Below, in pieces: positions 4,718-58,402 of a stretch of 64,000 nucleotides of DNA. The position numbers and the translations under genes were made by a program. Source of the stretch: Minisyncoccota bacterium (GTDB taxonomy: Bacteria > Patescibacteriota > Minisyncoccia > RBG-13-40-8-A); assembly GCA_035528175.1 (NCBI GenBank), contig DATKZC010000025.1, positions 431-64,430 of the forward strand. The letters run 5' to 3'. The notes under the pieces are model-generated. The model saw only the letters and a list, made by a program, of their open reading frames with translations, had not been told where the DNA came from and did not search any database. Numbering within the stretch: the stretch's first letter is position 1; each line of letters begins with the position of its first letter.

Positions 4718-4721
4718 AATA

Positions 4722-39781: not shown

Positions 39782-39782
39782 T

Positions 39783-40784: not shown

Positions 40785-40796
40785 TAACAAATAAAA

Positions 40797-40824
40797 GAAG
40801 AACATCTATTGTTCTTTTTTTTAT
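40797..40824 (+). terminator. Rho-independent terminator after the rSAM/oxidoreductase pair
   Basis: GAAGAACA-TCTAT-TGTTCTT hairpin followed by T8. Confidence 0.6.
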
Positions 40825-40840
40825 TTGTCCACAGATAAGT

Positions 40841-40895
40841 ACCTGACACCATTTGACACCTATTGACACTATCATTTTTACTACTATATAATTAA
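40841..40895 (+). promoter_or_regulatory. Promoter with three direct TGACAC repeats at exact 10-bp spacing
   Basis: TGACAC at 40844, 40854 and 40864. The last forms a TTGACA -35 with an about 18-nt spacer to TATAAT (40887-40892). The gene starts at 40902. Confidence 0.55.
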
Positions 40896-40901
40896 ATCAA
40901 T

Positions 40902-41150
40902 ATGAAAAAAGAGGTAAATTCAAACTCAATATACACTACCAATGAAACCAAAGAACTCTTGAAAGTAAGCGACAGCACCATAAAGCGCCTGCTCAAAAAA
41001 GGTATCATTAAAGCCAATAAAGTCGGTGGTCAATACAGAATTATGGGAAAGGAAATCCTCCGACTCGTCTCGCCTAAAGTTGAAAGAAAGGCAGTATCAA
41101 TTTATCAGAAGCTTAAAAAAGATATAAAAACTAAAATTAAGAAGTGGTAA
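40902..41150 (+). CDS. Excisionase-family (HTH_17-like) small DNA-binding protein
   Basis: ETKELLKVSDSTIKRLLKKGIIKANKVGGQYRI: the HTH and the conserved ...(R/K)xGxxxRI wing of Xis/AlpA-like excisionase-family regulators. K-rich tail. Confidence 0.5.
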   Translation: MKKEVNSNSIYTTNETKELLKVSDSTIKRLLKKGIIKANKVGGQYRIMGKEILRLVSPKVERKAVSIYQKLKKDIKTKIKKW

Positions 41151-41160
41151 TTTAAATACT

Positions 41161-42120
41161 ATGAAAAAAGCTTTAGTTTGCGGAGCAGGTGGTTTTATTG
41201 GTGGCCATCTGGTAAAACAATTAAAAAAAGAAGGTTATTGGGTACGCGGAGTTGATTTAAAAAAACATGAATTTTCTCCAAGTGCTGCGGATGAATTTTT
41301 AATACTAGACCTAAGAGAAGAAAAAAATTGCCAAACAGCTGTTCTTGGCCCAAATGGCGAGATTTTTGACGAAGTTTACCAATTAGCAGCTGACATGGGC
41401 GGCATGGGATTTATTCATACAGCTGAATGCGAAATTATGCGCAATAACGCCTTAATCAATATTAATATGATTAATTCAAGCGCTGATGCCAGAGTCAAGC
41501 GTTATTTCTTTTCCTCGTCTGCCTGCATTTATAGGAATATGGAATATAATGAGCCCGAACTATCCGAAGAAGACGCTTACCCTGCATTACCAGATAATGA
41601 ATATGGCTGGGAAAAGCTTTATGCCGAGCGCATGGCCATGGCTTATGGCCGACGTTTTGGTCTGGCTATTCGATTGGCTCGATTCCAAAACTGCTATGGA
41701 CCAGAGGGCACATGGAAAGGCGGAAGGGAAAAGGCTCCAGCTGCATTGTGCCGTAAAATTGCTGAAGCCAAAGACGATGACACTATTGAAATTTGGGGCG
41801 ATGGCACGGCTATGCGTGCTTATACTTACATTGATGATATGATTGAAGGAATCCGTATGCTTATGGATTCTGAATTAGAAAACGGCGTGAATATCGGCCG
41901 ACAAGAATATGTGAGCGTAGACGAATTAGCGAAAACAATTGCCGAAATTTCCAACAAGAAAGTAAATCTTAAACATATAAATGGACCAGTGGGGGTAAAA
42001 GCTAGAAATTTCCGCATTGACCGCATTTCTTCTTTGGGCTGGAACTCCCAGTTTTCCCTACGAGATGGTCTAACTAAAACATATTCCTGGATTAAAGAAC
42101 AAGTATGGAAAACCTCATAA
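41161..42120 (+). CDS. NAD-dependent sugar epimerase/dehydratase (extended SDR)
   Basis: ALVCGAGGFIGGHLV Rossmann motif, catalytic YGWEK (YxxxK), 319 aa. Confidence 0.75.
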   Translation: MKKALVCGAGGFIGGHLVKQLKKEGYWVRGVDLKKHEFSPSAADEFLILDLREEKNCQTAVLGPNGEIFDEVYQLAADMGGMGFIHTAECEIMRNNALININMINSSADARVKRYFFSSSACIYRNMEYNEPELSEEDAYPALPDNEYGWEKLYAERMAMAYGRRFGLAIRLARFQNCYGPEGTWKGGREKAPAALCRKIAEAKDDDTIEIWGDGTAMRAYTYIDDMIEGIRMLMDSELENGVNIGRQEYVSVDELAKTIAEISNKKVNLKHINGPVGVKARNFRIDRISSLGWNSQFSLRDGLTKTYSWIKEQVWKTS

Positions 42121-42926
42121 TCATAAAACCTCAAAAGAGATTTAGCCTACAAGACTTAAAGGAAATTTGGATATATAAAGAATTGCTTTATTTCTTTACT
42201 TGGCGCGATCTTAAAGTCCGATACAAACAAACCGCAATAGGTGTTCTCTGGGCAATTTTCCGACCATTTATTACCATGATTATTTTTAGTGTCTTTTTCG
42301 GCGGACTAATGAAAGTTCCTTCTGATAATATCCCTTATCCTATATTTGTTTATGTTGGTCTATTGTTTTGGCAGTTGTTTTCCGCGTCTTTATCCGAATC
42401 TAGCAATAGCTTGGTCAGCAGCCGAGCCATATTTACGAAAATTTATTTTCCACGTTTAATTCTGCCGATTTCTTCAATAATTCCTCATTTTGTTGATTTT
42501 TTAATTGCTTCGATAATTCTAATTGGTATGATGTTTTATTATCATTTTATTCCTGGACTGATTGGTTTATTGATTCTGCCAATTTTAATTTTAATAACAC
42601 TAACAATGTCTTGCGGACTGGGCATCTTTTTATCGGCAATAAACGTTAAATACCGGGACGTGCCCCATATTCTGCCTTTTTTAATCCAAACATTAATGTT
42701 TGTTACCCCTGTTATTTATCCCACGAGCATATTACAAAAATATTCGTGGATTATGGCCATAAACCCCATGACCGGAGTTATTCAGACAGCTCGTGCGGCA
42801 ATATTGGGAACATCATCAATTAATTGGTTTTTATTGCTCATTTCTGGTTTGATTTGTTTAACGGTATTAATTTTTGGAATAATTTATTTTAAAAAAACAG
42901 AAAAACATTTTGCGGATTTGGTATAA
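42105..42926 (+). CDS. wzm: ABC-2 type polysaccharide/O-antigen export permease
   Basis: WRDLKVRYKQTAIGVLWAIFRPF N-terminal ABC-2 signature and 6 TM helices. Overlaps the upstream gene by 16 bp. Confidence 0.8.
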   Translation: MENLIIIKPQKRFSLQDLKEIWIYKELLYFFTWRDLKVRYKQTAIGVLWAIFRPFITMIIFSVFFGGLMKVPSDNIPYPIFVYVGLLFWQLFSASLSESSNSLVSSRAIFTKIYFPRLILPISSIIPHFVDFLIASIILIGMMFYYHFIPGLIGLLILPILILITLTMSCGLGIFLSAINVKYRDVPHILPFLIQTLMFVTPVIYPTSILQKYSWIMAINPMTGVIQTARAAILGTSSINWFLLLISGLICLTVLIFGIIYFKKTEKHFADLV

Positions 42927-42941
42927 AATTACAAAAAATAT

Positions 42942-44213
42942 ATGTCAGTCGTTGAAATAAAAAATATATCAAAAAAATATCGCATTATGCGCCAAAAAGA
43001 ACGCTATGGCACACTGCGCGATACGCTTATCAATATTACTAAAAACCCATTCAGATTTTTCAAAAATACCATACTAGGCAACAATACTAGAGAAGAATTC
43101 TGGGCATTAAAAAATATAAATTTAGATATCAAAAAGGGAGAAGCCATCGGCATAATTGGAGCTAATGGCGCCGGCAAGTCCACGTTTTTAAAAATTATTT
43201 CCAGAATCACATTCCCGACAACTGGCGAAATCAAAATCAGAGGACGAGTAGCTTCTTTGCTGGAAATCGGCACGGGATTCCATCCGGAATTAACGGGATA
43301 CGAAAATATTTTTCTGAACGGAGCTATTATGGGAATGACCAAAAAAGAAATTAAAGCGAAGCTTAACGATATAATTAAATTTGCCGGAATTGAAAAATTT
43401 ATTGATACTCCGGTAAAACGTTATTCGTCCGGCATGTATATCAGGCTTGCGTTTTCTGTGGCTGCACACATGGAGCCGGATATTTTAATAGTCGACGAAG
43501 TGCTTGCCGTGGGAGACGTCAGTTTTCAAAAAAAGTGTCTTGGGAAGATGAATGAAGTGGCCAAAAAACAAGGCAGGACCGTTTTATTCGTCAGTCATAA
43601 TATGGCGGCGATTCAAAACCTTTGTGAAAGGTGCATTCTATTAGAAAATGGGATGATTAAAAAACGGGGCAAGACAGATGAAATAATAAGTTACTACCTA
43701 AGTCAAACTAACGGTAATACCACTATTGGAGAATATAAACATAGCAAGAATGATTTTTTGGCAAATGATTTTGTTGAATTAATTTCCGTTAAATTAACCG
43801 ATCAAAACGGAGATATCAGTGCGGATTTTGGCTCCACTGAAGATATATATATGTTAATAGAGTATAAAATAAAAAAAGAATTATCCACTTTGGTTATTGA
43901 TGCCGACATTAAAAATGAAGATGGCCTTACCATATTTCACTCCACGGATAATGATGATGGCAAACTTGCCGGCGAAAAAAGGGTTCCTGGAACTTACATC
44001 AGTCGTTGCCAAATTCCTAAAAGTTTATTAAATACTGGAAAATATTTTGTAGGAGTAGGGGGAGGCATTCCTAAAATAGAACAATTTTTCCATGCAAAAA
44101 ATATTTTAAGCTTTAATTTAAGATCTACCGGCGGACCAACAAGCGTAGACTCGCCAAGAAGCGGGGTGGTCTGCCCCGAACTTAAGTGGGAAACTACTTT
44201 AAAAATGATATAA
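42942..44213 (+). CDS. wzt: ABC polysaccharide export ATP-binding protein with C-terminal carbohydrate-binding-like domain
   Basis: GIIGANGAGKST Walker A, YSSGMYIRLAF signature, ILIVDEVLAVGD Walker B, and a 170-aa beta-rich extension as in Wzt. Confidence 0.85.
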   Translation: MSVVEIKNISKKYRIMRQKERYGTLRDTLINITKNPFRFFKNTILGNNTREEFWALKNINLDIKKGEAIGIIGANGAGKSTFLKIISRITFPTTGEIKIRGRVASLLEIGTGFHPELTGYENIFLNGAIMGMTKKEIKAKLNDIIKFAGIEKFIDTPVKRYSSGMYIRLAFSVAAHMEPDILIVDEVLAVGDVSFQKKCLGKMNEVAKKQGRTVLFVSHNMAAIQNLCERCILLENGMIKKRGKTDEIISYYLSQTNGNTTIGEYKHSKNDFLANDFVELISVKLTDQNGDISADFGSTEDIYMLIEYKIKKELSTLVIDADIKNEDGLTIFHSTDNDDGKLAGEKRVPGTYISRCQIPKSLLNTGKYFVGVGGGIPKIEQFFHAKNILSFNLRSTGGPTSVDSPRSGVVCPELKWETTLKMI

Positions 44214-44221
44214 GTAATTTT

Positions 44222-45643
44222 ATGAAAATACTTTTACTTTACGATACAAAAGGCTCAAAAGCAAAGAATTTAATGCTAGAATTAGAAAAAAATTCTAATA
44301 AAATAATCTATTGGGTAGGCGCCCCTGGGGGAGAAATAGATAATTTGCCTGAAAGTATTTTTCATTCAAGCTCCGATGCATTGCTCGGATTGCCGGCTAA
44401 AAATATTAATATTTCTGAATTTGCTCCACCAAGCAATAATCTGATAGAAAAATTATACAGAACTGAATCTCTAATTCTAACGATGATGAATGCAAAATAC
44501 GATAATTTGCGCACCAGCGAACGCAAGCATTTATATTATGAAATGTTAAGATATTGGTACGGTATACTCAATAAATATAAACCAGATGTTGTTCTCCATG
44601 GACTTATCCCTCATGCCGTCCATACCTTTTTAATACAGGAATTGGCGCGCTTGCTAAATATCAAAACCGTGATGTTTGAAGACACAGGAGCATCTGATAG
44701 ATTACTGGCATTTAACGATTTCCGCGACGGAAGCAAAGATCTACAAAGAGAAATCAAAAGAAATCATGGCAAAAATTTTTCATTAAAAGATTTGAGCAAT
44801 GATATACAAAAATACTATAAATCACAACTCGACTTTAAGCACGATTCTACGCCAGTATATGTAGGAGTCCTGAAAAATCGATACACTGGATCAGAATTAT
44901 TAAAACGCAGATTGAACCGCTTTAGAAAAAGCATCCAAGAAGGCATTTTTCTGAAAACAATAATACAAACCATAATTAAGAGATTTAGAAAAAATAGCAA
45001 AGATGAATATGCCAGCCTTCAAGCCGAACCGGATTTAAATAAAAAATTTATTTATGCCCCGCTACATTTGCAGCCAGAATGCACCACTTCCCCAAAAGGC
45101 GATTTATTCGTTGACCAAATTCTAATGCTCGAAACTTTATCTGCCGCCCTACCCAAAGATTGGGTAATATATGTTAAAGAGCATCCAATTCAATGGTACC
45201 AGCGCGGAACAGATTTTTCCGGCGCAAGATACCGAGGATATTACAAAAAAATATCTGAGATAAAAAATATTCAATTGATTCCAGTCCAAATCAGCACCTA
45301 TACTTTAATCAATAAATCACAGGCAGTAGCTACTGTTGCCGGAATGGCATCGTGGGAAGCAGTACTGAGGTCTAAACCAGCCATAATATTCGGCTACTCC
45401 TGGTATAGGGATTGTTATGGAGTTTTTAAAGTTGATAACATTTACTCCTGTAGTGTGGCTTTAGAAAAAATTGCCAGCGGTTTTGCCGTAGACCAACAAC
45501 AAGTTATTAATTATTTAAAATGCTTTGATGATGCAACCATCCATGGATATCTCGACGTTGATTATGCAAAAAGCTCTGAACTTACTCCTGAAGAAAATAA
45601 AAATAATGTAATTCAAAAAATGTTATTTGAGATTAAAAATTAA
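44222..45643 (+). CDS. Capsule_synth (KpsC/KpsS)-like glycosyltransferase candidate
   Basis: Start set at MKILLLYDTKG. YAPLHLQPECTTSP and VKEHPIQW resemble the H.QPE and K.HP motifs of KpsC/KpsS-type ulosonic-acid transferases. By-eye only. Confidence 0.35.
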   Translation: MKILLLYDTKGSKAKNLMLELEKNSNKIIYWVGAPGGEIDNLPESIFHSSSDALLGLPAKNINISEFAPPSNNLIEKLYRTESLILTMMNAKYDNLRTSERKHLYYEMLRYWYGILNKYKPDVVLHGLIPHAVHTFLIQELARLLNIKTVMFEDTGASDRLLAFNDFRDGSKDLQREIKRNHGKNFSLKDLSNDIQKYYKSQLDFKHDSTPVYVGVLKNRYTGSELLKRRLNRFRKSIQEGIFLKTIIQTIIKRFRKNSKDEYASLQAEPDLNKKFIYAPLHLQPECTTSPKGDLFVDQILMLETLSAALPKDWVIYVKEHPIQWYQRGTDFSGARYRGYYKKISEIKNIQLIPVQISTYTLINKSQAVATVAGMASWEAVLRSKPAIIFGYSWYRDCYGVFKVDNIYSCSVALEKIASGFAVDQQQVINYLKCFDDATIHGYLDVDYAKSSELTPEENKNNVIQKMLFEIKN

Positions 45644-45663
45644 TTAAGAATTGAGATGAAATT

Positions 45664-46644
45664 ATGATTGAAGATTTATTTAAAGATAAAACAATATTGA
45701 TTACAGGCGGCACCGGATCTTTTGGTTCCAATTTTGTTAAGTATCTACTAAAAAACTCTAAGGCAAAAAAATTAATAATTTACAGCAGAGACGAACTCAA
45801 GCAATCAAAGATGGATGCCGAAATCAATGACAAAAGACTGCGCTTCTTTATTGGAGATGTCCGAGAATCGGAAAGGTTGCGAAGGGCATTTAATGGCGTT
45901 GATATTGTGATACATGCTGCGGCCCTCAAACAAGTTCCGGCCTTGGAATATAATCCATTTGAAGCAATTAAAACCAATATACTCGGCAGCCAGAATATTA
46001 TCAATGCTGCCATTGACCAAGGAATAGAAAAAGTGTTGTTAGTTTCAACAGATAAAGCAGTCCATCCAGTAAATCTTTATGGCGCGACCAAATTATGCGC
46101 CGAGAAATTATTTGTAAACGGCAATGTTTATGCCCCTAAAAAATCAATCTTCAGCGTAGTAAGATATGGCAATGTTTTAGGCAGCCGGGGAAGTATTGTA
46201 GAAACATTACTTAAAGAGAAAAATCCGAAAAAAGTCCAAATTACCGATATGGAAATGACCCGATTCTGGATTACATTAGAACAGACATTTGAATTGGTAT
46301 TGTTTGCGCTTGAGCATATGCGCGGCGGGGAGATTTTTGTGCCCAAGATACCGAGCATGAAATTGGTTGATTTATTTGATGCTATTGCGCCAAACACAGA
46401 GAAAGAAATTATCGGAATCAGACCAGGAGAAAAACTGCACGAAGTCCTACTCACTCAGGAAGAAGCTAAACATGCCATGGAATTAGACAGACATTTCGCC
46501 ATCGTGCCTCATGATAAAAAACTGGAGTTTTACGCGGAAGTAATAAGAAACGGCAAAAAAGTAGCGCATGATTTTAGTTTTAGCAGCCATACCAATAATC
46601 ATTGGTTGACCAAGGAGGAGCTTAAAAAATTAATAAATAACTAA
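45664..46644 (+). CDS. pseB: UDP-GlcNAc 4,6-dehydratase (PseB/CapD/FlaA1-like inverting dehydratase)
   Basis: ILITGGTGSFGS, IYSRDELKQ, LRFFIGDVRE, VIHAAALKQVP...PFEAIKTNILGSQN, and STDKAVHPVNLYGATK with Lys in place of the usual SDR Tyr-partner arrangement, characteristic of PseB/CapD. Confidence 0.85.
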   Translation: MIEDLFKDKTILITGGTGSFGSNFVKYLLKNSKAKKLIIYSRDELKQSKMDAEINDKRLRFFIGDVRESERLRRAFNGVDIVIHAAALKQVPALEYNPFEAIKTNILGSQNIINAAIDQGIEKVLLVSTDKAVHPVNLYGATKLCAEKLFVNGNVYAPKKSIFSVVRYGNVLGSRGSIVETLLKEKNPKKVQITDMEMTRFWITLEQTFELVLFALEHMRGGEIFVPKIPSMKLVDLFDAIAPNTEKEIIGIRPGEKLHEVLLTQEEAKHAMELDRHFAIVPHDKKLEFYAEVIRNGKKVAHDFSFSSHTNNHWLTKEELKKLINN

Positions 46645-46651
46645 TTAAAAT

Positions 46652-47722
46652 ATGGCCAAAAAAGAATTCCCTAAAGTTATAAAAATAGGTTCAAAGTTAG
46701 TCGGCAAAGAACAACCAACGTACTTTATCGCTGACATCGGAGCAAACTTCGATAGCAATTTGGAAAAGGCGAAGAAATTGGCTTTAGCAGTAAAAAAATC
46801 TGGCGCAGATTGCGTTAAATTTCAAACTTTTGCAGCAGACAAAATTGTTTCCGGCCCAAGCTTCGCTAAAATGCATTTAAAAGGCATCCACGGGTCATGG
46901 AAAAAGCCAATTAACCAAATTTTTAAAGAAGCGGAATTCCCTAGGGCATGGCATAAAAAACTTGCTGATTACTGCAAAAAAATAAATATTGATTTCTCTT
47001 CTTCTCCATATGATTTCGAGGCCGTAGATCTTTTGGATAAAATCGGCGTTAATTTTTTCAAAATCGGCTCCGGAGAAATAATCTGGCCAGAAATGTTAAA
47101 ATATATCGCGAGAAAAAACAAACCGATGATTCTGGCAACCGGCGATAGCACATTGGCTGAAGTCGACGAGGCAATAAGAATTATTGAAAGTACAGGAAAC
47201 AATAAATTGATTTTACTTCAGTGCATCACCAATTATCCGTCCAAAATTGAAAATGCAAATATTAATGTCCTTAAAACATATCAAACCGCCTTCAATATTA
47301 TAACCGGATATTCTGATCATAGCCCGGGCGATATAGTCGTTCTGGGTTCTGTTGCATTGGGAGGCAAGGTAATCGAAAAACATTTTACGTTGAACAAAAA
47401 AGATTCTGGCCCAGACCATCCCCATTCTATGGAACCGCAAGAATTCAAACAAATGGTAGATAAAGTAAGATTATTAGAAAAAGCCCTTGGCAGCACCAGA
47501 AAAGAAGTTACGGCCGAAGAATTTGAAACTGTAATTGTCCAGCGTCGATCGCTTCATGTTAACAAAAATATCAAAGCGGGGGAAACAATCAAACGAAACG
47601 ATATAATCGAATTGAGACCAGCGACAGGAATACTTCCTAAACACAAAGACATTGTCGTTGGACGAAAAGCAAAAATCAATATTAAAAAACGCGAAGCAAT
47701 ACAATGGGAGGATATTGCATAA
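46652..47722 (+). CDS. Nonulosonic acid synthase (NeuB/PseI/LegI family) with C-terminal SAF domain
   Basis: YFIADIGANF, ADCVKFQTF TIM-barrel N-terminus of the NeuB family and a C-terminal antifreeze-like domain. Confidence 0.85.
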   Translation: MAKKEFPKVIKIGSKLVGKEQPTYFIADIGANFDSNLEKAKKLALAVKKSGADCVKFQTFAADKIVSGPSFAKMHLKGIHGSWKKPINQIFKEAEFPRAWHKKLADYCKKINIDFSSSPYDFEAVDLLDKIGVNFFKIGSGEIIWPEMLKYIARKNKPMILATGDSTLAEVDEAIRIIESTGNNKLILLQCITNYPSKIENANINVLKTYQTAFNIITGYSDHSPGDIVVLGSVALGGKVIEKHFTLNKKDSGPDHPHSMEPQEFKQMVDKVRLLEKALGSTRKEVTAEEFETVIVQRRSLHVNKNIKAGETIKRNDIIELRPATGILPKHKDIVVGRKAKINIKKREAIQWEDIA

Positions 47723-47725
47723 ATA

Positions 47726-48349
47726 ATGAAATTCAAAGGAAAATTAGTCAATTTAATAAAATTAATGGTCGTTACTTATAACGACCTAATTGACGAATCT
47801 GATGTTGTTGTCTGCCTAGAGGGAGATGGATATAATCGCATAGAAAAAACTATTGAATTGTTTAGGAATGGGTTGGCAAAAAATATTGTTATCTCCGGCG
47901 GATTCAATTCTCCCCCGTTTTGCCTTCACGCAGAAATACTTGCGCAAGAAATTATCAAAAGGGGCATTCCTAAAAATAAAATAATTTTAGAAAAAAATTC
48001 CCAAAATACATACGAACAGGGATTGGAGGTTCTAAAAATCGTTCAGGAAAAGAAATGGAATAAAATAATCCTTGTTGCATCACATTTTCATCAACCAAGG
48101 GCATATCTAGCGTTCTTAAAGGCGATGAAAGATTTAAAATTGAAAGTCCATATATTCAACGCTCCGGCAAAAGACCTTCTTTGGTTTGAAAAAACCGATG
48201 CCGGACCAACAAGAATCCAATTAATGGAAGATGAATTAGAAAAAATCAAAGAATACACAAAAAAAGGTCATCTTATTGAAATTAAAGAAGCATTAAATTA
48301 TCAAAAATGGCAAGAGAAAAAACTGGCTTCGAAAAAATCAAAAAAATAA
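47726..48349 (+). CDS. DUF218 (YdcF/SanA-like) domain protein
   Basis: VVCLEGDGYNRIEKTIELFRNGLAKNIVISGG and LVASHFHQPRA match the DUF218 core. Confidence 0.55.
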   Translation: MKFKGKLVNLIKLMVVTYNDLIDESDVVVCLEGDGYNRIEKTIELFRNGLAKNIVISGGFNSPPFCLHAEILAQEIIKRGIPKNKIILEKNSQNTYEQGLEVLKIVQEKKWNKIILVASHFHQPRAYLAFLKAMKDLKLKVHIFNAPAKDLLWFEKTDAGPTRIQLMEDELEKIKEYTKKGHLIEIKEALNYQKWQEKKLASKKSKK

Positions 48350-48975
48350 TGGGTAAGAATTTTATTGGCCTAAAAGAGCTAAATAAAATTAGCCATTATT
48401 TTAAAATCTCAAACCTTCCCAGGTCTGGTCGTTCAATACCCGACGTTCCCTTTAATTTGAACTATTTAAAAAAAGTTCGCAAAGATTATATATTAATCTT
48501 GGGAATACCAAAAGATAGACAAGACCAAAAATTAACCATAAATAATCTACGTTTAAAATTCGGCTATAACCCATTTAAATCTGAGCCTTGTTTCTATAAC
48601 CAGGACTGGTATTTAAAAGAAAAATTCGCAAAAAATACTACGCTTGAATTCAAATGGTATCTTATAAAAAAGACTGTTGACCAAAATACGCGCGGTAAAA
48701 ATCCTGAAAATATCATAAGAACTTTAAAAGGCAACGAAATATTTCCATCTGCTATTCTCGCTGCCTTCACATTTTTTGCTTATTATCTCTTGAATCACGG
48801 TGAAATCTTATGGAAACATGATTTTATCTGGTGTTCCGATAAAGACAAAAACAATGACAGAATTTATACTGGCCGCTACATTGACCCAAAAAAGATTAAT
48901 AAGAATGGATTTAATATCCATAGACATCTTTCTATCCGTCCCTGCTACGGATTGGTTCCTCAAATAAAATATTAA
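48307..48975 (+). CDS. Protein of unknown function
   Basis: The ORF overlaps the upstream gene by 43 bp, so the true start may be the internal M at codon 15 (MGKNFIGLKEL). One TM-like segment (ILAAFTFFAYYLL). Confidence 0.3.
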   Translation: MAREKTGFEKIKKIMGKNFIGLKELNKISHYFKISNLPRSGRSIPDVPFNLNYLKKVRKDYILILGIPKDRQDQKLTINNLRLKFGYNPFKSEPCFYNQDWYLKEKFAKNTTLEFKWYLIKKTVDQNTRGKNPENIIRTLKGNEIFPSAILAAFTFFAYYLLNHGEILWKHDFIWCSDKDKNNDRIYTGRYIDPKKINKNGFNIHRHLSIRPCYGLVPQIKY

Positions 48976-48999
48976 TATTGATTAAGTCAATTAATAATT

Positions 49000-49689
49000 A
49001 TGAAAGACACAATTCTTTGGAATAAAGAGAGCGATAACTACACAAAAAGAGCTAAAATATCTTATGAGGATTTATATAATAGAAAAATAGATTATGATGA
49101 TGTCGAAAAACTTACAAAAATATTACCAACCAGAATTAAAACCATTTTAGATATTGGTTGTGGATTTGGAGGGTTTACAGGAAAATTAGCTGAAAAATTT
49201 CCTCGCGCAAAAATAATTGGCATTGATCCGGGAAAAAGAACAATTGCTTTGGCTAAAAATAAATTTAAAAAATATAAAAATTTGTCTTTCTATGTTGGGC
49301 ATTCACACAAAATAAATCTTAATGAGGAACAATTTGATTTAGTTATTCTAAGAATGGTTTTTCAATGGATTCCTAGAAAATATTTATTTAAAACAATCGC
49401 AGAAATTGATAAATTATGTAAAAATTTTATATTTATTAAAGAGTTTTATCCTGCCATTCCATCAAGCTCAAAATCTATTCATGATAAAAAAATTAAAATA
49501 TTCAAAGAAGATTACGCAAAAATTTTTATTAGCGTTCCGTGGTATAAATTAATATATAAAAAAATTCAGGATAAAAAATATGGGGATAGTTTTCAAAGAG
49601 GAGATTTTTTAATCCAAAAATTTTCTATTTCTAAATCATATATTTACAAAAAGGCCGTCCAAGAAAAAGATAAAAAAACGCAAAAATAA
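49000..49689 (+). CDS. Class I SAM-dependent methyltransferase
   Basis: ILDIGCGFGGFTGKLA (motif I), IIGIDPG (motif II), LVILRMVFQWIP. Confidence 0.7.
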   Translation: MKDTILWNKESDNYTKRAKISYEDLYNRKIDYDDVEKLTKILPTRIKTILDIGCGFGGFTGKLAEKFPRAKIIGIDPGKRTIALAKNKFKKYKNLSFYVGHSHKINLNEEQFDLVILRMVFQWIPRKYLFKTIAEIDKLCKNFIFIKEFYPAIPSSSKSIHDKKIKIFKEDYAKIFISVPWYKLIYKKIQDKKYGDSFQRGDFLIQKFSISKSYIYKKAVQEKDKKTQK

Positions 49690-49691
49690 AT

Positions 49692-50450
49692 ATGATTACA
49701 GCAATTATCCAAGCCAGAATGGGTTCTACAAGATTGCCCGGCAAAGTACTGAAAAAAATAAAAGGCAAAACCCTGCTGGAAATACTCGTAGAAAGATTAA
49801 GACAGGCAAAAAAAATAGATCAAATTATCATTGCCACCAGCACTGACAAAAAAAATTCGGCCATTGTTAAATTGGCAAAAAAAATAAATTGCTCTTATTT
49901 TATCGGAAATGAAAATGATGTCCTAGATAGAATTTACCAGACCGCTAAAAAATTCAAAGCGCAAACAATTATCAGAGTTACTGCCGATTGCCCATTCCAC
50001 GATCCTGAATTAATAGACCAAATGGTCAATTTTTATTTGAAAAATAAGGATAAATACGATTATGTAAGCAATGTCGACCCGCCAAGCTTTCCTGACGGAC
50101 TAGATCTCTGGATTATCCCCTTCAAAACTCTAGAGCGCACATGGAAAGAAGCAAAACTAACATCAGAAAGAGAGCATGTCTGCCCATACATCTGGAAAAA
50201 TCCTCACTTATTTAAAATCGGGCATTTTGAATCGAAAAAAGATTACTCCCATTTAAGATGGACTGTGGATGATATCGGCGATTTCAATTTTATTAAAAAA
50301 ATCTACGAAAAACTTTACAAAAAAGGAAAAATTTTCCACATGAAAGATATATTAGATTTATTAAAAAAACACCCAGAATTGCATAAAGCCCAAGAAGGAA
50401 AAATTAGAGATGCGGGATATTTAAAATCAATTAAAAACGATAAAAAATAA
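49692..50450 (+). CDS. CMP-nonulosonic acid synthetase / acylneuraminate cytidylyltransferase family (PseF/NeuA/KdsB-like)
   Basis: ITAIIQARMGSTRLPGKVLK (the N-terminal CTP_transf_3 signature) and RVTADCPF. Confidence 0.75.
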   Translation: MITAIIQARMGSTRLPGKVLKKIKGKTLLEILVERLRQAKKIDQIIIATSTDKKNSAIVKLAKKINCSYFIGNENDVLDRIYQTAKKFKAQTIIRVTADCPFHDPELIDQMVNFYLKNKDKYDYVSNVDPPSFPDGLDLWIIPFKTLERTWKEAKLTSEREHVCPYIWKNPHLFKIGHFESKKDYSHLRWTVDDIGDFNFIKKIYEKLYKKGKIFHMKDILDLLKKHPELHKAQEGKIRDAGYLKSIKNDKK

Positions 50451-50454
50451 AATC

Positions 50455-51321
50455 ATGAAAGAAAGACTTCCTATCAGCATAATTATCCGCGCCATAAATG
50501 AAGAATCGAACATTTCTGATTGCATTAAAGCGTGCAAAGACAACAATCCTGAAGAAATTATTGTTGTTGATGGCGGCTCAAAGGATAAAACGCGAGAAAT
50601 AGCGCAGCAATGCGGAGCAAAAGTAGTAATTTCCGAACGCGGACTCTCTAATCAAAGAGATGCCGGCGTAAAAGCTGCTTCCTGTCCGTATATAGCCATT
50701 GTAGACGCTGATGACCGCTTAAAAGAAGACTGCCTGGAAAAGTTGCTTAAAGAAATAAGAGAAAACGATTACGACGCAATCCAAGCGCAACTGCGCAATT
50801 TCTACAAATGGTACGGCAATGAAGAAAAACAAGCAACATATCTTGAACGGGCAATGGATGTTAATCTTAGAATAATCCGCTCTCAAATCGGCCCTACAAC
50901 AATGGTTGGCAGGCCAGCGCTCTATAAAACAAGTTCACTAAAAGCTGTTCCCATGGATCCCCTGTTCCAGGACGCGTCCGAAGATTCAGACCTTTCGTAC
51001 AGATTCCATCAAAATGGATTCAAACAAGGAATAGGCACTGGAGTTTCTTACAGAAAACATCTTTCTAGTTTCAGAAAAGCCGTCAAAAAATACATTTTAA
51101 GCGGAAAGGGAGAAGCTTTATTTACTTTCCGCCATCCGGAAAGATTGTTCGCAACGCTCAAGCACGAGCTTTATGTGTATCCGATTAAAAGATCATTTAA
51201 AGCAATTCGCAATGGTTATATGTTTTATGCTCCGTTTTTCGTCTTGGTTGGCTGGTGCCGTTTCTTCGGTTTTATTAAAACAAAAATAAAGTTTCTTCTT
51301 AAGGGAAAACCTAGATTATGA
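50455..51321 (+). CDS. Family 2 glycosyltransferase
   Basis: ISIIIRAINEE, VVDGGSKDKT and AIVDADD (DxD) motifs. Confidence 0.75.
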   Translation: MKERLPISIIIRAINEESNISDCIKACKDNNPEEIIVVDGGSKDKTREIAQQCGAKVVISERGLSNQRDAGVKAASCPYIAIVDADDRLKEDCLEKLLKEIRENDYDAIQAQLRNFYKWYGNEEKQATYLERAMDVNLRIIRSQIGPTTMVGRPALYKTSSLKAVPMDPLFQDASEDSDLSYRFHQNGFKQGIGTGVSYRKHLSSFRKAVKKYILSGKGEALFTFRHPERLFATLKHELYVYPIKRSFKAIRNGYMFYAPFFVLVGWCRFFGFIKTKIKFLLKGKPRL

Positions 51322-52739
51322 AAATAGCTTTTATACAAAAAAGAACTTATGAAAAAATTGGCGTTCACCAAATTTCTGGCTGCCTGAAAAACGCCAACAA
51401 AGATTTTATAATTGATATTTTTATCGAAGAACTTGAACCTAATTTCTACGATAAAATTGCCACATTTAAGCCAGATTTTGTGCTCTACAGCCTTTTTATC
51501 GGCGAAGAATCATTCGTCTTGGAAGCATTTTCGAAAATAAAAGAATTCTTGCCCCAAGTTAAAACAATTATTGGCGGGCCATTCACGCTTGTTTTTCCAG
51601 AAATTGCCAAAAGAGACGAAGTTGATTTTGTAATCCGAGGTGACGGAGAATATTCTCTTCCCCTCTTTTTTAAATTATATGAGGACAAAAAATCTCTTCA
51701 TGAGGTTCCAGGAATATATTTCATACAAGAAGACGGAACTCTATTTAAAAATGACAATATCCGATTAACTTCTGATTTAAAAAACATTCCTGACCCGGAT
51801 CGAGATCTATATTACAAATACGAATCGCTACGTAATCAAGACACTAAAGGTTTTATCGCTTCGCGCGGATGCCCTTATAACTGTACTTATTGTTATAATG
51901 CCGAGCTTAAAAAGTTTTATACAGAGTCTTATTGGCGCCTCAGAGACCAAGAAGCGGTACTCAGGGAAATCGAATACGTCAAAAACAAATACGGCCTGAA
52001 ATGGGTTCATTTCCACGATGGTACGTTCAATTCGAGTATCGAATGGTTGAAGTCATTCCTTGTAGAATATAAAAAACGCGGCTTGCCACCTTTTCTCTGT
52101 AATTGCAGGGTAGAAAATATAAATGAGGAATCAGTATCTCTAATGAAACAGGCCGGTTGCGAGAGGATTACTTTTGGAATACAATCTGGCAACCAATATA
52201 TCAGGGAAGATATTTCTGGAAGGCATATGCCGGACAAACAAATAGAAGATGCTTTCGCGCTATGTAAAAAATATAACATCCGAGTTGGTGCAGATATTAT
52301 TTTTGGTTGGCCAGGAGAAACCATGGAACAAGCGATGGATACGATAAATATGTGCAGAAAAATCAAACCTGATACTTGCCATTCTAATGTACTTATTCCC
52401 TATCCTGGACTCTGGATTACTAAAAGAGCGATAAAAGAAGGATTTTTGGAACACGAACCGACTTTCAAAGAAATCAGAGAACTAGACAGCAATAAATCAT
52501 TAATAAAGCAAAAAAATATCAGATTGTTAATCAATATGGATAAACTTTTTAATTATTTGATACAATTTCCGTTTATAGAAAAGTTTTTCAAATTTTTACT
52601 GCACCTGCCTCCCAATAAGTTTTTCAAGTTTTTAAAAAATTTACATCTTTTAAAAAGAAGTTTAAAATATGATTCTGACGACTTTTTATCGTCACTCAAA
52701 ATTATTAGAAACTACATACAGCATTATAATGACGCTTAA
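51318..52739 (+). CDS. Cobalamin-binding radical SAM enzyme (class B rSAM)
   Basis: About 150-aa N-terminal B12-binding-like Rossmann domain (IIGGPF), then ASRGCPYNCTYCYN (CxxxCxxC) and ERITFGIQSG TIM-barrel motif. Confidence 0.75.
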   Translation: MKIAFIQKRTYEKIGVHQISGCLKNANKDFIIDIFIEELEPNFYDKIATFKPDFVLYSLFIGEESFVLEAFSKIKEFLPQVKTIIGGPFTLVFPEIAKRDEVDFVIRGDGEYSLPLFFKLYEDKKSLHEVPGIYFIQEDGTLFKNDNIRLTSDLKNIPDPDRDLYYKYESLRNQDTKGFIASRGCPYNCTYCYNAELKKFYTESYWRLRDQEAVLREIEYVKNKYGLKWVHFHDGTFNSSIEWLKSFLVEYKKRGLPPFLCNCRVENINEESVSLMKQAGCERITFGIQSGNQYIREDISGRHMPDKQIEDAFALCKKYNIRVGADIIFGWPGETMEQAMDTINMCRKIKPDTCHSNVLIPYPGLWITKRAIKEGFLEHEPTFKEIRELDSNKSLIKQKNIRLLINMDKLFNYLIQFPFIEKFFKFLLHLPPNKFFKFLKNLHLLKRSLKYDSDDFLSSLKIIRNYIQHYNDA

Positions 52740-52742
52740 TTT

Positions 52743-54368
52743 ATGAAAACAATAAAAAATATTTTATTTTTAAATCCGCCCGATCCTTCTTTATTGAAAC
52801 AAAATTCTAAAAAGATTAATTGTCCATATTTTGAACCTCCATTGGGATTGCTTTATGTTTATTCATTTATAAAAAGAAACAAAAAAGATTTGTCAGTCCG
52901 TTTTTGCGATCTGAATATAGAAATGGGCTTTAAGGGCGCAAAAACTCTTGAGGAGGCAATTAAACGCTCAATGGATAATTTTGCTCCCGACCTTGTTTGT
53001 GTGTCGGCCCTATATTATTCGGCAATTTCCATTTTTCATTCCACGGTAAAGGAAGTTAAAAAACTGGCGCCTGGTGTTTTGGTTGTATTGGGGGGGCACT
53101 ATGCGACTCATTTGACAAATATGGCAATGAAAGACGAATTAATTGACTTTTGCGTCCTTTCCGAGGGCGAAATCGGGCTGTCGGACTTAATTGACGCTCT
53201 TAACTCTGAAAAAAATCTTGAAGAAATAGAAGGTTTAGCCTATAGAAAAAACAATGAAATAATCAGGAAACCGCGCAATAATTTTTGGAGCGGATACAGC
53301 GATTTTGACACGCTGGAATGGAATGACTTGGAAATGGAATACTATTTCAAAGAAGGCAGAAACGTATTCGACAGATTCGAAAATAGAAATCAGAGAAAGT
53401 TTGCGGCAATGACTGCCACGCGCGGATGCCCGAATGCCTGCATTTTTTGCTCTTCAAAAAATTTCTGGCACAGAAATTGGAGAAAGAGAAAAATACCCAA
53501 AATCATAGATGAGGTAAAATTCCTAATTAATAATTATGGCGCAAACACGATTATTTTCAATGATGAAAACATGAGCGTAGACAAAGATTGGTTCTTCGAA
53601 TTAATGGATGAATTAGAAAAATTAAAAATTACCTGGATAGCAGGCAGCGGTCTCTCAGTAAGAACTATCAACGACGAAAAAGTGATTAAAAAAATGTATT
53701 CAAGCGGTATAGGATATTTTAATCTGGCCATTGAATCAAGTAGCGACGAATCACTAAAAAAATTACAGAAACCGAGTTCAATCGAAGAAATAAAAAACGT
53801 GATTAAAATGATTAGGGAAAACGGCAATGGTTATGTTAACGGGTTTTTTATAACCGGATTTCCGTTTGAAGCAAAAAAAGACGTAATTTATACTTATGAT
53901 TTTGCCCGCTCGCTCGGGCTGGATTGGTATTCTTTTTATTGCCTGCAACCATTCCCAGGAACCGAAATCCATAATTATTGCCTAGAAAATAAATTAATAG
54001 AAGCGTTTGATATAAACTATGGAGAAAATTATTTTGCTCCAGATATGAAACATTTGGATTATACTTCTGAAGAATTGAACAAATTGAACTATATAGCCAA
54101 CTTAAAATACAATTTTGTCGAAAATCGCAACTTAAAAATGAATACGGAAAAATCTCTCCAGCAGGCCGAACGCGACTTTAAATACATCCTTGATATGGTA
54201 CCCAATCATGTTTTCGCTTTTTGGGGATTATCGGAAATAGCAAGATTAAAAAATCAAGAAGACAAAAGGAAAGAATACATTGCTTTAGCGAAAAAAGCGC
54301 TTATTGAAGACAAAACTACAGACTGGCAATACTATTTAAAAGAATTTAATTTAAATATTAACCAATAA
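52743..54368 (+). CDS. Cobalamin-binding radical SAM enzyme (class B rSAM), tandem paralog
   Basis: N-terminal B12-binding-like domain (VVLGGHYATH), ATRGCPNACIFCSS (CxxxCxxC) and a C-terminal about 150-aa extension. Confidence 0.75.
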   Translation: MKTIKNILFLNPPDPSLLKQNSKKINCPYFEPPLGLLYVYSFIKRNKKDLSVRFCDLNIEMGFKGAKTLEEAIKRSMDNFAPDLVCVSALYYSAISIFHSTVKEVKKLAPGVLVVLGGHYATHLTNMAMKDELIDFCVLSEGEIGLSDLIDALNSEKNLEEIEGLAYRKNNEIIRKPRNNFWSGYSDFDTLEWNDLEMEYYFKEGRNVFDRFENRNQRKFAAMTATRGCPNACIFCSSKNFWHRNWRKRKIPKIIDEVKFLINNYGANTIIFNDENMSVDKDWFFELMDELEKLKITWIAGSGLSVRTINDEKVIKKMYSSGIGYFNLAIESSSDESLKKLQKPSSIEEIKNVIKMIRENGNGYVNGFFITGFPFEAKKDVIYTYDFARSLGLDWYSFYCLQPFPGTEIHNYCLENKLIEAFDINYGENYFAPDMKHLDYTSEELNKLNYIANLKYNFVENRNLKMNTEKSLQQAERDFKYILDMVPNHVFAFWGLSEIARLKNQEDKRKEYIALAKKALIEDKTTDWQYYLKEFNLNINQ

Positions 54369-54382
54369 ACAAATCCAAACTT

Positions 54383-55696
54383 ATGAAACCTAATCGAGGC
54401 ATCAAATTATGGAATAAAGCGAAAAAATTAATCCCTGGCGGCTCTCAGCTGCTTTCAAAGCGCGCAGAAATGTTTCTGCCAGACCAATGGCCTGCCTATT
54501 TTAAAAAATCCAAAGGCGTAAATGTCTGGGATTTAGACGGAAATAAATATCTGGACACATGGGCAAGTATTGGCGCCTGCATATTAGGCTATGCTGATCC
54601 GGATGTGAATAAAGCTGTTAAAAGAGCAATAGATGATGGTTCGGTATCTACGCTTAATTCACCAGAAGAAGTAGAACTGACAGAATTATTGTGCAAATTG
54701 CATCCCTGGGCTCAAATGGCAAGATATGCCAGAGGCGGAGGCGAAGCAATGGCAGTAGCTATTAGAATTGCCCGCGCTGCCAGCAACAAGGACAAAATAG
54801 CGTTCTGCGGTTATCATGGATGGCAGGATTGGTACCTTGCCGCAAACCTCGCTAAAGATAAAAACCTTGACGGACATCTCTTGCCTGGGCTTGAACCAAG
54901 GGGCGTACCCAGAGGGCTGAAAGGAACCGCCATCCCCTTCCATTACAACAAGATCGAGGAGCTTGAAAAAATAATTGCTCAAAATAGAGACATAGGAGTA
55001 ATTGTAATGGAACCATTAAGAGACCATGAACCACAAAACAATTTTTTACAGAAAGTCAGAAAGATTGCCGACAAAATCAATGCAGTATTGATTTTTGATG
55101 AAATAACTATTGGCTGGAGATTATGCATTGGCGGAGCGCATCTTAAATACGGAGTTAATCCCGACATTGCAGTATTCGCCAAAGGTATAAGCAATGGTTT
55201 TCCCATGGGGGCTATTATTGGCAAAAAGAAAATTATGGAAGCAGCTCAAACTAGCTTTATCAGCAGTTCTTCATGGACAGAAAGAATCGGTTTTACTGCT
55301 GCGCTGGCAACCATTAAAAAATTCATGGCTAAAAATGTTCCTGTCCATCTTAATAAAATTGGAAAAATACTTATCGTCGGCTTAAAAGAAGTTGCAAAAA
55401 AAAATGGAATAAAATTAACAATAGCCGGCCCTGCGCCATTATTCCATTTTTCTTTCGATTATGGCACGGACAGCCAGGCAATTCGCACTCTTTTTACGCA
55501 AGAAATGCTAAAAAGAGGAATTTTAGCTTCTGGTGGCGTTTATATCAGTTATAGTTTTAAAACTGAGCATGTTAAAAAATATTTAAAAGCAGCAGACAGC
55601 GTTTTTTTCTTGCTTAAAAAAGCCATTGATAAGAAAACAATTTACAGCTTATTGGAAGGACCAATTGCGCATAAACGATTTGAAAGATTAACCTAA
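54383..55696 (+). CDS. Class III PLP-dependent aminotransferase (GSA-aminomutase-like)
   Basis: GGSQLLSKR, VWDLDGNKYLD, GYHGWQDWY, VIFDEITIGWRL and FAKGISNGFPMGAI (PLP-Lys) are all class III hallmarks. Confidence 0.8.
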   Translation: MKPNRGIKLWNKAKKLIPGGSQLLSKRAEMFLPDQWPAYFKKSKGVNVWDLDGNKYLDTWASIGACILGYADPDVNKAVKRAIDDGSVSTLNSPEEVELTELLCKLHPWAQMARYARGGGEAMAVAIRIARAASNKDKIAFCGYHGWQDWYLAANLAKDKNLDGHLLPGLEPRGVPRGLKGTAIPFHYNKIEELEKIIAQNRDIGVIVMEPLRDHEPQNNFLQKVRKIADKINAVLIFDEITIGWRLCIGGAHLKYGVNPDIAVFAKGISNGFPMGAIIGKKKIMEAAQTSFISSSSWTERIGFTAALATIKKFMAKNVPVHLNKIGKILIVGLKEVAKKNGIKLTIAGPAPLFHFSFDYGTDSQAIRTLFTQEMLKRGILASGGVYISYSFKTEHVKKYLKAADSVFFLLKKAIDKKTIYSLLEGPIAHKRFERLT

Positions 55697-55701
55697 TTTT
55701 T

Positions 55702-57234: not shown

Positions 57235-58402
57235 AAACAACATAGCCATTAGTCTTTTGCAAATTTCGCACCACAGCCCTACTGGTGTTTTTGTTTATGT
57301 TCAAAGTCTCTTGGATAATCTTTTAAAAATCGATAAAAACAATGAATATTATCTTTTGCTGAGACTTAACGATTTTAGATATTTCCGAAAAAGATACAAA
57401 AATGACAAAAATATCAAATTGAAAATCATTGATATGCGCCGCGACTTACTATTTAATCCTGTGAGGGCATGTTTAAAAATAATCGCAGGCATAAAGAAAG
57501 ACAAATCCGCAAAAGAAGAGATTTTAAGAAAAGAAATACAAAAACTTACGGATGAAAATAATATAAATATATTCTTTTTCCCTTCAGGGATTATTTATCC
57601 TAAAAACATTAAAAATACAAAGAAAATCGTTACTATCTGTGATTTACAGTATGAATATTTCCCTGAAAACTTCCCCGGAAAATATTTAAAATACAGAAAA
57701 GAAAGCCACCGATATGCTATGCTAAATTCCGACCGGATTATTGCTATTTCCAATTATACCCGCAATACCATTATTGAAAATTATGGCATTAGCCCGGAAA
57801 AAATTACCACAATTTATCTTGGCACCGACGCTAAAAAAATAAAAAAAGGTAATATTTTATTACCCAACAATTTCATCTTCTATCCAGCCGCCGTATGGCC
57901 ACACAAAAACCACAAAATACTTATTGATTTATTGAAAAAAATCGAGATCCAGTTCCCCGACCTATGTCTTGTTTTTACCGGAATGATAAAAAATCATGGT
58001 TTAAAAAAAGAAATTGATAATCTTATTAATAATTATAATTTGTCAAAAAAAATAATCTTTCTTGGATATGTCTCAGATAACAATTTAAACTGCATTTATC
58101 AAAATGCGAAAGTCTTAATCTATCCTTCTTCTTTTGAGGGTTTCGGTTTGCCAATTATAGAGGCTTTCAAACACAAATTGCCTGTTATAGCTGCTGACAA
58201 TACTAGTATTCGCGAGATTGTCGAAGACGCAGGACTGCTGTTTGAAACTAATAATCTGGAAATGCTTGCTGATTGCGTAAAAAAAATTCTCACAGACCAA
58301 AGCCTGAGAGAACATTTGATAAATAATGGTTTTGAGCGTGCGAAAAATTTTACCTGGGAAAATACCGCGCTGGAAACGCTTTCACTTTTTAATAAGCTGT
58401 AA
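57227..58402 (+). CDS. GT4-family glycosyltransferase
   Basis: YPSSFEGFGLPIIEAFKHKLPVIAADNTSIREIV (the E-x7-E GT4 motif region). Confidence 0.8.
   Translation: MNKNNIAISLLQISHHSPTGVFVYVQSLLDNLLKIDKNNEYYLLLRLNDFRYFRKRYKNDKNIKLKIIDMRRDLLFNPVRACLKIIAGIKKDKSAKEEILRKEIQKLTDENNINIFFFPSGIIYPKNIKNTKKIVTICDLQYEYFPENFPGKYLKYRKESHRYAMLNSDRIIAISNYTRNTIIENYGISPEKITTIYLGTDAKKIKKGNILLPNNFIFYPAAVWPHKNHKILIDLLKKIEIQFPDLCLVFTGMIKNHGLKKEIDNLINNYNLSKKIIFLGYVSDNNLNCIYQNAKVLIYPSSFEGFGLPIIEAFKHKLPVIAADNTSIREIVEDAGLLFETNNLEMLADCVKKILTDQSLREHLINNGFERAKNFTWENTALETLSLFNKL

Follow-up and report, generated by a model that had tools for sequence, protein, structure and literature searches.

We describe here a small promoter array, three TGACAC repeats at one-turn spacing, in a stretch of 64,000 nucleotides (nt) of contig DATKZC010000025.1 from a Minisyncoccota bacterium; this whole 64-kb stretch is called the window below. 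The array precedes a gene for a helix-turn-helix (HTH) protein of 82 amino acids (aa), which is followed by a long run of glycan genes. Sequence comparison suggests that the array is most likely a conserved operator within a strong, -35-dependent, leaderless promoter, placed at the head of an operon by which Patescibacteria make and export surface glycans. From its fold, its near-exclusive co-localisation with the array and its covariation with the repeats, the HTH protein is the probable binder. The elements concerned are the following.

40843..40852 (+): repeat unit 1, CTGACACCAT, two helical turns 5' of the -35 unit; an invariant column in the alignment with six other species
40853..40862 (+): repeat unit 2, TTGACACCTA, one helical turn 5' of the -35 unit; fits the family consensus wTTGACACyT
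40863..40872 (+): repeat unit 3, TTGACACTAT; its opening hexamer, TTGACA (40863-40868), serves as the -35 box
40887..40892 (+): -10 box TATAAT, 18 nt past the -35 box and without a TG extension; 12/12 promoter match
40902..41150 (+): 82-aa winged-helix protein of the HTH_17 type (Pfam, NCBIfam and an AlphaFold2 model), proposed binder of the array
41161..58402 (+): co-directional glycan operon (open reading frame map and Pfam), beginning 10 nt past the HTH stop codon
40787..40828 (+): AT-rich hairpin with a U-run, 3' of the stop codon (40782-40784) of a GFO/IDH/MocA oxidoreductase gene

The TGACAC copies lie at 40844-40849, 40854-40859 and 40864-40869 on the forward strand with an exact period of 10 base pairs (bp). 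They are direct and not inverted repeats in the repeat search of the region, and unit 1 has C, not T, ahead of TGACAC. The initial annotation had described three TGACAC repeats exactly 10 bp apart, the last doubling as a TTGACA -35 box about 18 bp before TATAAT, and had remarked that repeats so spaced are typically the binding array of a repressor or activator, often the product of the downstream gene. The spacing, the 18-nt spacer and the identity of the gene were all reproduced, and the array is embedded in a promoter and is probably an operator for which the HTH protein is the most plausible binder. A search for TGACAC-N4-TGACAC with at most one mismatch returned a single site on both strands of the 64 kb, against a chance expectation of about 0.03 per window, and two or more matches occurred in 0 of 100 dinucleotide-preserving shuffles. 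TTGACA at 40863-40868, the 18-nt spacer and TATAAT formed the only 12/12 sigma-70 match in the region scanned for promoters. The start codon of the HTH gene, ATG at 40902, stands 9 nt past the -10 box, and the transcription start is predicted at about 40899-40902. Since this leaves no room for a Shine-Dalgarno sequence, the mRNA is predicted to be leaderless or nearly so. The repeats are located 5' of the predicted transcription start, and an Rfam scan of 40600-41300 found no family, with a lone sub-threshold chance match on the terminator hairpin; on these predictions the reading as an RNA element is dismissed.

The promoters of most other operon-first genes in the window have a different make-up, with TGnTATAAT 6-8 nt before the ATG and neither TTGACA nor a Shine-Dalgarno sequence. 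Examples of these extended -10, leaderless genes are listed here.

855-1280 (-)
3524-4717 (-)
8009-9193 (-)
13531-13905 (-)
13944-15737 (+)
17490-18830 (-)
19677-20117 (-)

Leaderless mRNAs with extended -10 promoters thus seem, from the sequence, to be the rule in this genome, and the idea that leaderless geometry is a peculiarity of the HTH gene was rejected, as it is common to the operon-first genes of the window. Because the other promoters are mostly of the extended -10 kind without TTGACA, the array is not a generic promoter feature. Separately, two TGTCAA copies 11 bp apart were seen at 35909-35925 on the promoter of the Bac_transf operon that starts at 35957 (TTGTCA, 17 nt, TAGAAT, with ATG 9 nt later), and this pair may be a different small operator.

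The conservation of the array was followed by scanning one genome per species of the GTDB, which gave 277 confirmed loci, 80 of which were fetched. All loci with a lineage name belonged to Patescibacteria (Portnoy-, Yanofsky-, Falkow-, Komeili-, Kaiser-, Zambryski-, Buchanan- and Doudnabacteria, and others). Among the 79 loci with enough upstream sequence (78 of the 80 GTDB loci and the window), 75 carried two to five phased TGAYAC units within 150 nt of the HTH start codon, and the spacing between units was exactly 10 bp in 120 of 121 cases. The units share the consensus wTTGACACyT, core position 6 being C in 193 of 196, and the general pattern can be written TTGAYACYNN, in which Y follows the TTGAYAC core. 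At the four exceptional loci the array was more distant on the upstream side and headed the transcription unit: L028 and L053 have it some 170-190 nt before the ATG, and in L036 and L072 it stands ahead of a single glycan gene, after which the HTH gene comes. In 885 kb searched on both strands, 99 of 111 dimer matches were directly upstream of an HTH gene, and the remainder were on the same strand. When the window was aligned with six other species, the cores of the repeats proved invariant and their flanks divergent. Loss of the repeats from orthologous promoters had been named beforehand as an argument against a regulatory array; they are kept in about 80 species.

The geometry of the promoter is conserved as well. 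One unit always coincided with the -35 box in the 75 loci, and the array grew upstream or downstream in whole helical turns, with these layouts relative to the -35 unit (unit 0).

(-1, 0, +1): 30 loci
(0, +1): 15 loci
(0, +1, +2): 12 loci; TTGATAC supplies an extended -10, TGnTA
(-2, -1, 0): 6 loci; the type of the window and of L002
(-1, 0): 6 loci

A unit was found inside the spacer in 61 of the 75 loci, reaching the -10 box in 16. The spacer measured 16-18 nt in 74 of 75 loci (18 nt in 36), and the start codon lay 6-9 nt past the -10 box in 53 of the 75 orthologous loci. Such an arrangement might be imagined without any dedicated factor, as stacked -35-like boxes or UP-like DNA that offer RNA polymerase several registers and make a very strong promoter for an abundant glycan operon. 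Every unit indeed holds the sigma-70 -35 consensus TTGACA and one is always at -35, and most other promoters in the genome are without a -35 box, so adding one could boost expression. This explanation is nonetheless very unlikely, because conservation goes beyond the hexamer (C at position 7 of the unit in 193/196 and Y at position 8), units in the spacer or at -15 cannot act as a -35 box for the conserved -10, alternative -35 boxes do not require the exact 10-bp phasing seen in 120/121 cases, and the core of the repeat covaries with the protein subfamily, as described below.

The 82-aa open reading frame (ORF) matched HTH_17 (PF12728) with 40.9 bits (cut-off 27, E = 2.4e-10), the only Pfam family above its cut-off, and the TIGR01764 'excise' domain with 34.6 bits (cut-off 28.8); no further domain was present besides HTH_17. 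Its best NCBIfam match was MamR (NF040990; 46.3 bits, E = 3.8e-12). MamR is likewise a small HTH_17 protein in a specialised chromosomal cluster, the magnetosome island, but the score is far below the equivalog cut-off of 100 bits and the context and taxon are unrelated, and membership in the MamR family was rejected. A search of 5.8 billion proteins returned 1509 homologues at E<=0.001; the best 120 were nearly all 80-85 aa long, with a few of 90-102 aa, and homologues of 80-82 aa back the start codon of the ORF. Identity to the window protein ranged from 66 to 98% in 25 aligned homologues, and the sole taxon name among the sampled homologues was a metagenome-assembled genome (MAG) of Candidatus Portnoybacteria, 89% identical. 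The alignment had 34 invariant columns, including recognition-helix residues S23, S25, T26, K28 and R29, the wing K40-G-G-Q-Y-R46 and the terminal W82. After clustering of a protein library at 50% identity, 5 representatives of the family were left at E<=1e-30, or 74 at E<=1e-10. Judged by these sequences, the family is very tight.

The AlphaFold2 model (predicted local distance difference test score 87) showed a strand-helix-helix-hairpin wing-helix fold followed by a long basic C-terminal helix, residues 58-81. The top match in a Foldseek search against the PDB was the BldC-DNA complex 6ama, with a root-mean-square deviation (rmsd) of 1.8 A over 52 columns and probability 1.0. Taken together, the BldC matches 6ama and 6amk gave rmsd values of 1.3-1.8 A over 49-52 columns, with probabilities of 0.99-1.0 and an identity of about 23%. 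Further fold matches were Pukovnik Xis, RacA, TorI, GlnR/TnrA and NmlR.

Protein and operator changed together in a divergent subfamily of seven homologues of 94-106 aa. In these, I27M and N39A were found in 7/7 and G43K in 6/7, and K28 was replaced by T in five and by M or R in the others; positions 27 and 28 belong to the recognition helix. Six of the seven divergent loci had three or more units with 10-bp phasing upstream, and 17 of their 21 units had A or T at the position where the main family has C in 193 of 196, giving TGACTA, TGACAA and TGACAT; the divergent locus L204 had a lone TTGACC box. Homologue P0128 (locus L201) keeps K28, N39 and G43 together with a TTGACAC unit. The divergent homologues with identifiable neighbours adjoin PseB-like or other glycan genes. 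Among the computational arguments for recognition of the repeats by the HTH protein, this covariation of protein and operator, seen in a small sample, is the strongest. Outside the window, proteins P0140, P0176, P0177, P0178 and P0181, of 260-320 aa, contain 4-5 tandem HTH_17 modules related to the family, and such fusions fit side-by-side binding in the same orientation on direct repeats.

Locus L201 showed a further arrangement at 2103-3267, where phased TTGACAC, TTGAACT and TTGATAT units are followed by a 180-nt leader, a gene for a NusG-like protein of 204 aa and then the HTH homologue; the genes after it encode Formyl_trans_N, WbqC and a family 2 glycosyltransferase (GT2). By its gene content this locus resembles glycan operon control of the RfaH/UpxY type layered on the array.

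It may also be asked whether the array serves another factor altogether, the HTH gene being merely the first cistron behind it. Phased direct repeats over the -35 box are classic for regulators of the PhoB/OmpR type. One candidate would be such an OmpR/PhoB-type regulator and another the window protein encoded at 23026-24066 (-), which has 346 aa, a Sigma70 region 4 (Sigma70_r4, residues 24-71) and a HARE-HTH domain but lacks the remaining sigma regions; region 4 standing alone might, in principle, also recognise TTGACA boxes. Arrays at glycan promoters without a nearby HTH gene also speak for a separate factor. We consider this quite unlikely, since 99 of 111 array matches, in about 80 species, lie directly ahead of the HTH gene, the array core changes together with the recognition residues of the HTH protein in the divergent subfamily, recognition of phased direct repeats is what the HTH fold is known for, and no response regulator occurs among the conserved neighbours.

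Several characterised systems resemble parts of this one. BldC of Streptomyces binds variable numbers of direct repeats, 2-4 or more, as a head-to-tail filament through its winged HTH domain alone, and its unit is 9 bp long and AT-rich, AATTN4C (PMC5859096). The protein described here, for which BldC is the best structural match, is likewise small and appears to have no effector domain, and its promoter carries a variable set of direct repeats, 2-5 phased units on the same strand. The winged HTH core superposes, but the model of the present protein has an extra basic C-terminal helix of 24 residues ending in an invariant Trp. Its proposed operator mimics a -35 box, its presumed targets are glycan genes, and its hosts are Patescibacteria. 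Membership of the BldC family at the sequence level was rejected, as unit length, motif and the extra C-terminal helix differ and BldC was not retrieved by profile.

The operator logic, in turn, is nearly identical to that of ArdK of plasmid R388, which represses five promoters through GTATTGACACCTATTGACA, an operator in which TTGACA is directly repeated and the -35 box is contained (PMC9723621). The period is 10 bp in both, one arm is the -35 box, and ArdK binds head to tail. ArdK differs in being a KorA-type tri-helical HTH protein with a dimerisation domain, an obligate dimer on two units, and in being plasmid-borne and controlling plasmid stability genes. The 82-aa protein had no Pfam match to the KorA-type family, and KorA and ArdK were not among the top 50 fold matches listed. 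Membership of the ArdK/KorA family was rejected, the operator architecture alone being shared.

The MerR, GlnR and TnrA proteins have a related winged-helix geometry, and GlnR, TnrA and NmlR were among the fold matches. MerR proteins act as symmetric dimers on palindromes in spacers of 19-20 bp and carry effector domains, whereas the present system has direct repeats and no effector domain. Classical MerR membership was rejected on account of the direct repeats, the 16-18-nt spacers in 74/75 loci and the lack of a further domain. A dedicated small regulator as the first gene of a surface-glycan locus is known from RfaH with its ops element and from UpxY/UpxZ of Bacteroides. The present system shares the regulator that heads the locus, and at L201 a NusG-like gene stands between the array and the HTH homologue. 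RfaH and UpxY/UpxZ, however, use NusG paralogues to influence elongation and antitermination, whereas here control would be exerted at initiation, by way of an operator embedded in the promoter. By analogy, the closest picture of the HTH protein at work would be BldC or Xis placed on an operator of the ArdK kind. The mechanism class is ordinary; the conservation is unusually strong.

The initial annotation had labelled the protein as an Xis/AlpA-like member of the excisionase family and had raised the possibility of a mobile-element junction. On that view the protein would be an excisionase (recombination directionality factor) and the repeats its binding sites in an attachment site. The domain is indeed named for the excisionase family, and Pukovnik Xis and TorI are among the fold matches. 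Recombination directionality factor sites are direct repeats one helical turn apart, which excisionases bind, and Apl also regulates promoters (10.1101/784983). The likeness to the lambda-type, Pukovnik Xis, TorI and 186 Apl proteins lies in the HTH_17/Xis-type winged helix and the one-turn direct repeats. The difference lies in the setting, which has no integrase, attachment site or mobile context and in which the gene is syntenic with glycan exporters. Pfam scans, which covered only the larger ORFs of the window and only those up to 59.5 kb, turned up neither an integrase nor a recombinase, in line with the earlier remark that the window holds no integrase, and no recombinase cluster occurred among the conserved neighbours of the 80 loci. 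The IMG/VR collection of viral contigs gave no relative confirmed by tblastn, and guanine-cytosine (GC) content was uniform across the window. The HTH gene is instead a tightly conserved chromosomal gene whose synteny with housekeeping-adjacent glycan genes is kept across many Patescibacteria lineages, and the repeats overlap a consensus promoter that drives the HTH gene itself. A mobile-element junction was rejected on these grounds (no integrase in the scanned ORFs, no viral relatives, uniform GC and conserved synteny), and the excisionase explanation is already effectively refuted. Of the family label, the DNA-binding domain stands and the excisionase function does not, as no integrase was found in the scanned ORFs.

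Considering the above, we have proposed a plausible model in which monomers of the 82-aa BldC/Xis-like protein would bind the 10-bp TTGACACYNN units head to tail, one per helical turn, and build a short cooperative filament of 2-5 subunits. As one unit is always the -35 box and further units lie in the spacer or at the -10 box, the filament would cover the -35 unit, and in most species also the spacer or the -10 box, and so compete with both RNA polymerase and region 4 of sigma. For the units in the spacer no contact with sigma is known, and a filament there would block access of the polymerase. The outcome would be negative autoregulation of the HTH gene and of the co-transcribed exporter and nonulosonate genes, and a small number of further array-bearing glycan promoters would be controlled in trans by the same protein. 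The head-to-tail stoichiometry is modelled on the known direct-repeat binders. Once binding is granted, repression is the likelier direction of control, whereas the full chain, a polymerising regulator that autoregulates by repression, seems about equally apt to hold or to fail.

The same protein and operator might instead form an activating pair, the protein recruiting or stabilising polymerase from -45 and -55 in a class I or class II manner, or reshaping the mostly 18-nt spacer in the manner of MerR or BldC, and thereby turning on the glycan operon. The units of the window and of L002 stand at -55, -45 and -35 with the spacer free, the spacer of 18 nt in 36/75 loci is slightly above the optimum, and the fold falls in the MerR-like group, whose classical members activate by binding and distorting the spacer (PMC5859096). 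Activation is still unlikely, given that the promoters are already near consensus at -35 and -10 (12/12 in the window), unlike typical activator-dependent ones, that a unit is located in the spacer in 61/75 loci and reaches the -10 box in 16, and that the only characterised TTGACA direct-repeat operator, that of ArdK, represses (PMC9723621).

Several points weigh against the repressing filament. The link between protein and operator rests on association, fold analogy and covariation in a small sample that is not phylogenetically independent. The Foldseek E-values were weak (0.03-0.4), because the domain is small, and a family-profile search of all PDB sequences at E<=10 retrieved no BldC and no Xis, with two chance matches, S20 and SP0239; kinship to BldC and Xis is visible at the fold level only, in a predicted model. 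The unit here is a 10-bp TTGACACYNN, as opposed to the 9-bp AT-rich unit of BldC. The extra C-terminal helix could, in the model, form a symmetric dimer, which is ill-suited to direct repeats. The array of the window itself, at -55, -45 and -35 with a free spacer, fits activation equally well. The window contains a single array, and a relaxed search of the 64 kb with up to three mismatches found nothing above chance and hence no further member of a regulon. Lastly, with a protein that has no effector domain, the circuit may be a fixed feedback loop and not a switch.

The genes behind the array agree with a role in glycan export. In the window the operon encodes an epimerase, Wzm, Wzt, a Capsule_synth-like protein, a PseB-like dehydratase, NeuB, a DUF218 protein and a methyltransferase, together with a cytidine monophosphate (CMP)-sugar cytidylyltransferase, a GT2 enzyme, two B12-radical SAM enzymes, an aminotransferase and a family 1 glycosyltransferase (GT1). 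Clustering of neighbours over the 80 loci combined with Pfam scans showed that an MsbA-like ATP-binding cassette exporter of 595 aa begins 3-36 nt past the HTH gene in 26 loci, and that Wzm/Wzt lie within 3 kb downstream in 17 loci including the window, often after an epimerase. Other recurrent neighbours were GT1, DegT, NeuB, CMP-sugar cytidylyltransferase, Wzy_C/TPR, Bac_transf, Capsule_synth and B12-radical SAM proteins. The gene families of the window operon also follow the HTH gene in other species, on the same strand. The suggestion that the array is a switch for the downstream transport and nonulosonate operon fits this conserved synteny and the extra arrays at glycan genes, with regulation itself being inferred. 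One genome has more than one such locus: L057 and L067 in the same MAG, JBAZOD01, are two separate sets of array, HTH gene and MsbA-like exporter, and some Patescibacteria accordingly carry paralogous loci of this kind.

Ten arrays were not directly ahead of an HTH gene, and all of them preceded glycan-related genes. They are listed by locus, the last four loci coming from an unbiased scan of metagenome DNA.

L074: ahead of Wzm/Wzt
L008: ahead of a methyltransferase gene
L036, L072 and L059: ahead of glycosyltransferase, Capsule_synth and Gmd genes that precede the HTH gene
L084: Wzx-like flippase
L096: DegT
L109: PseB-like dehydratase
L113, two arrays: a pyruvate-kinase barrel-ATP sulfurylase-APS (adenosine 5'-phosphosulfate) kinase fusion, and a HisF-like gene

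The metagenome scan used TTGACACYNNTTGACACY, and only matches with promoter geometry like that of the Candidate Phyla Radiation (CPR) were kept; its matches were mostly chance or unrelated, as 58 of the 120 scored loci were GC-rich and non-HTH and 31 more were without promoter-like context. The HTH gene was not found in the fetched DNA of L084, L096, L109 and L113. The fusion gene of L113, at 3328-6063 directly behind the array, encodes a protein of 911 aa with a pyruvate-kinase barrel, PUA_2, ATP sulfurylase and APS kinase. Its domains suggest a supply of 3'-phosphoadenosine 5'-phosphosulfate for glycan sulfation within the putative regulon. At L154, a contig of 1.2 kb, five phased TTGAYAC-type units lie at 675-721 without an HTH gene, and an ORF of 81 aa of unknown type follows about 130 nt downstream.

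Upstream of the promoter, the hairpin at 40787-40828 had a folding energy of -15.6 kcal/mol (z = -6.95), none of 200 shuffles being as stable, and inverted repeats I1, I2 and I4 map to it. It is a probable intrinsic terminator dividing the upstream operon from the HTH promoter. The earlier description of a strong terminator is plausible for this AT-rich hairpin with a U-run. The hairpin, with its AT-rich stem, was not among the matches of the consensus terminator scan. The listed ORFs just upstream, 38672-39781 (radical SAM/SPASM) and 39729-40784 (GFO/IDH/MocA), overlap by 53 nt, and the oxidoreductase probably starts at a later ATG, near MPKIKIGFIG. The rest of the window is occupied by housekeeping genes, such as those for tRNA synthetases, DnaX, SecA and SecDF. 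Among them stand two genes for HerA/VirD4-like ATPases, 11076-13529 (-) and 20161-21702 (-), with weak to moderate TrwB_AAD_bind and DUF87 matches, the second having a C-terminal treble-clef zinc finger.

In the CPR, Parcubacteria and Patescibacteria literature searched, there was no prior description of the protein, the motif or the regulon. Almost nothing is known of gene regulation in Patescibacteria (CPR), which have tiny genomes, few transcription factors and mostly uncultured members. In this setting a single protein, together with its proposed operator, stays almost unchanged in 277 or more GTDB species representatives, always at the head of operons for surface-glycan export or biosynthesis, and the cell surface is what these episymbionts attach to their hosts with. 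With a plain sigma-70-type promoter as its operator, the system lends itself to direct tests in E. coli and in vitro, for which the organism need not be cultured. The motif, TTGACACYNN repeated 2-5 times, offers simple annotation of promoters and of the glycan regulon for thousands of MAGs. The BldC/Xis way of reading direct repeats would be extended to a new phylum, to an operator type that mimics the -35 box and to a new physiological role.

A bolder and unlikely proposal is that this minimal winged-helix protein is a phylum-wide master regulator of the glycan coat of Patescibacteria through -35 mimicry, with the C-terminal helix and Trp docking a partner so that export status feeds back on transcription. 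In GlnR and TnrA, a short C-terminal region after the winged HTH domain senses a partner protein (PMC5859096). By analogy with the docking of TnrA and GlnR onto glutamine synthetase, the partner would be, for example, the exporter ATPase or a biosynthetic enzyme. The protein would polymerise head to tail on decamers that imitate the -35 box of sigma-70 promoters, and in this way would set, at several promoters, how strongly the genes for the exporter, for nonulosonate and for other glycan functions are expressed. If this were true, the ultra-small episymbionts would possess a dedicated switch for remodelling their surface.

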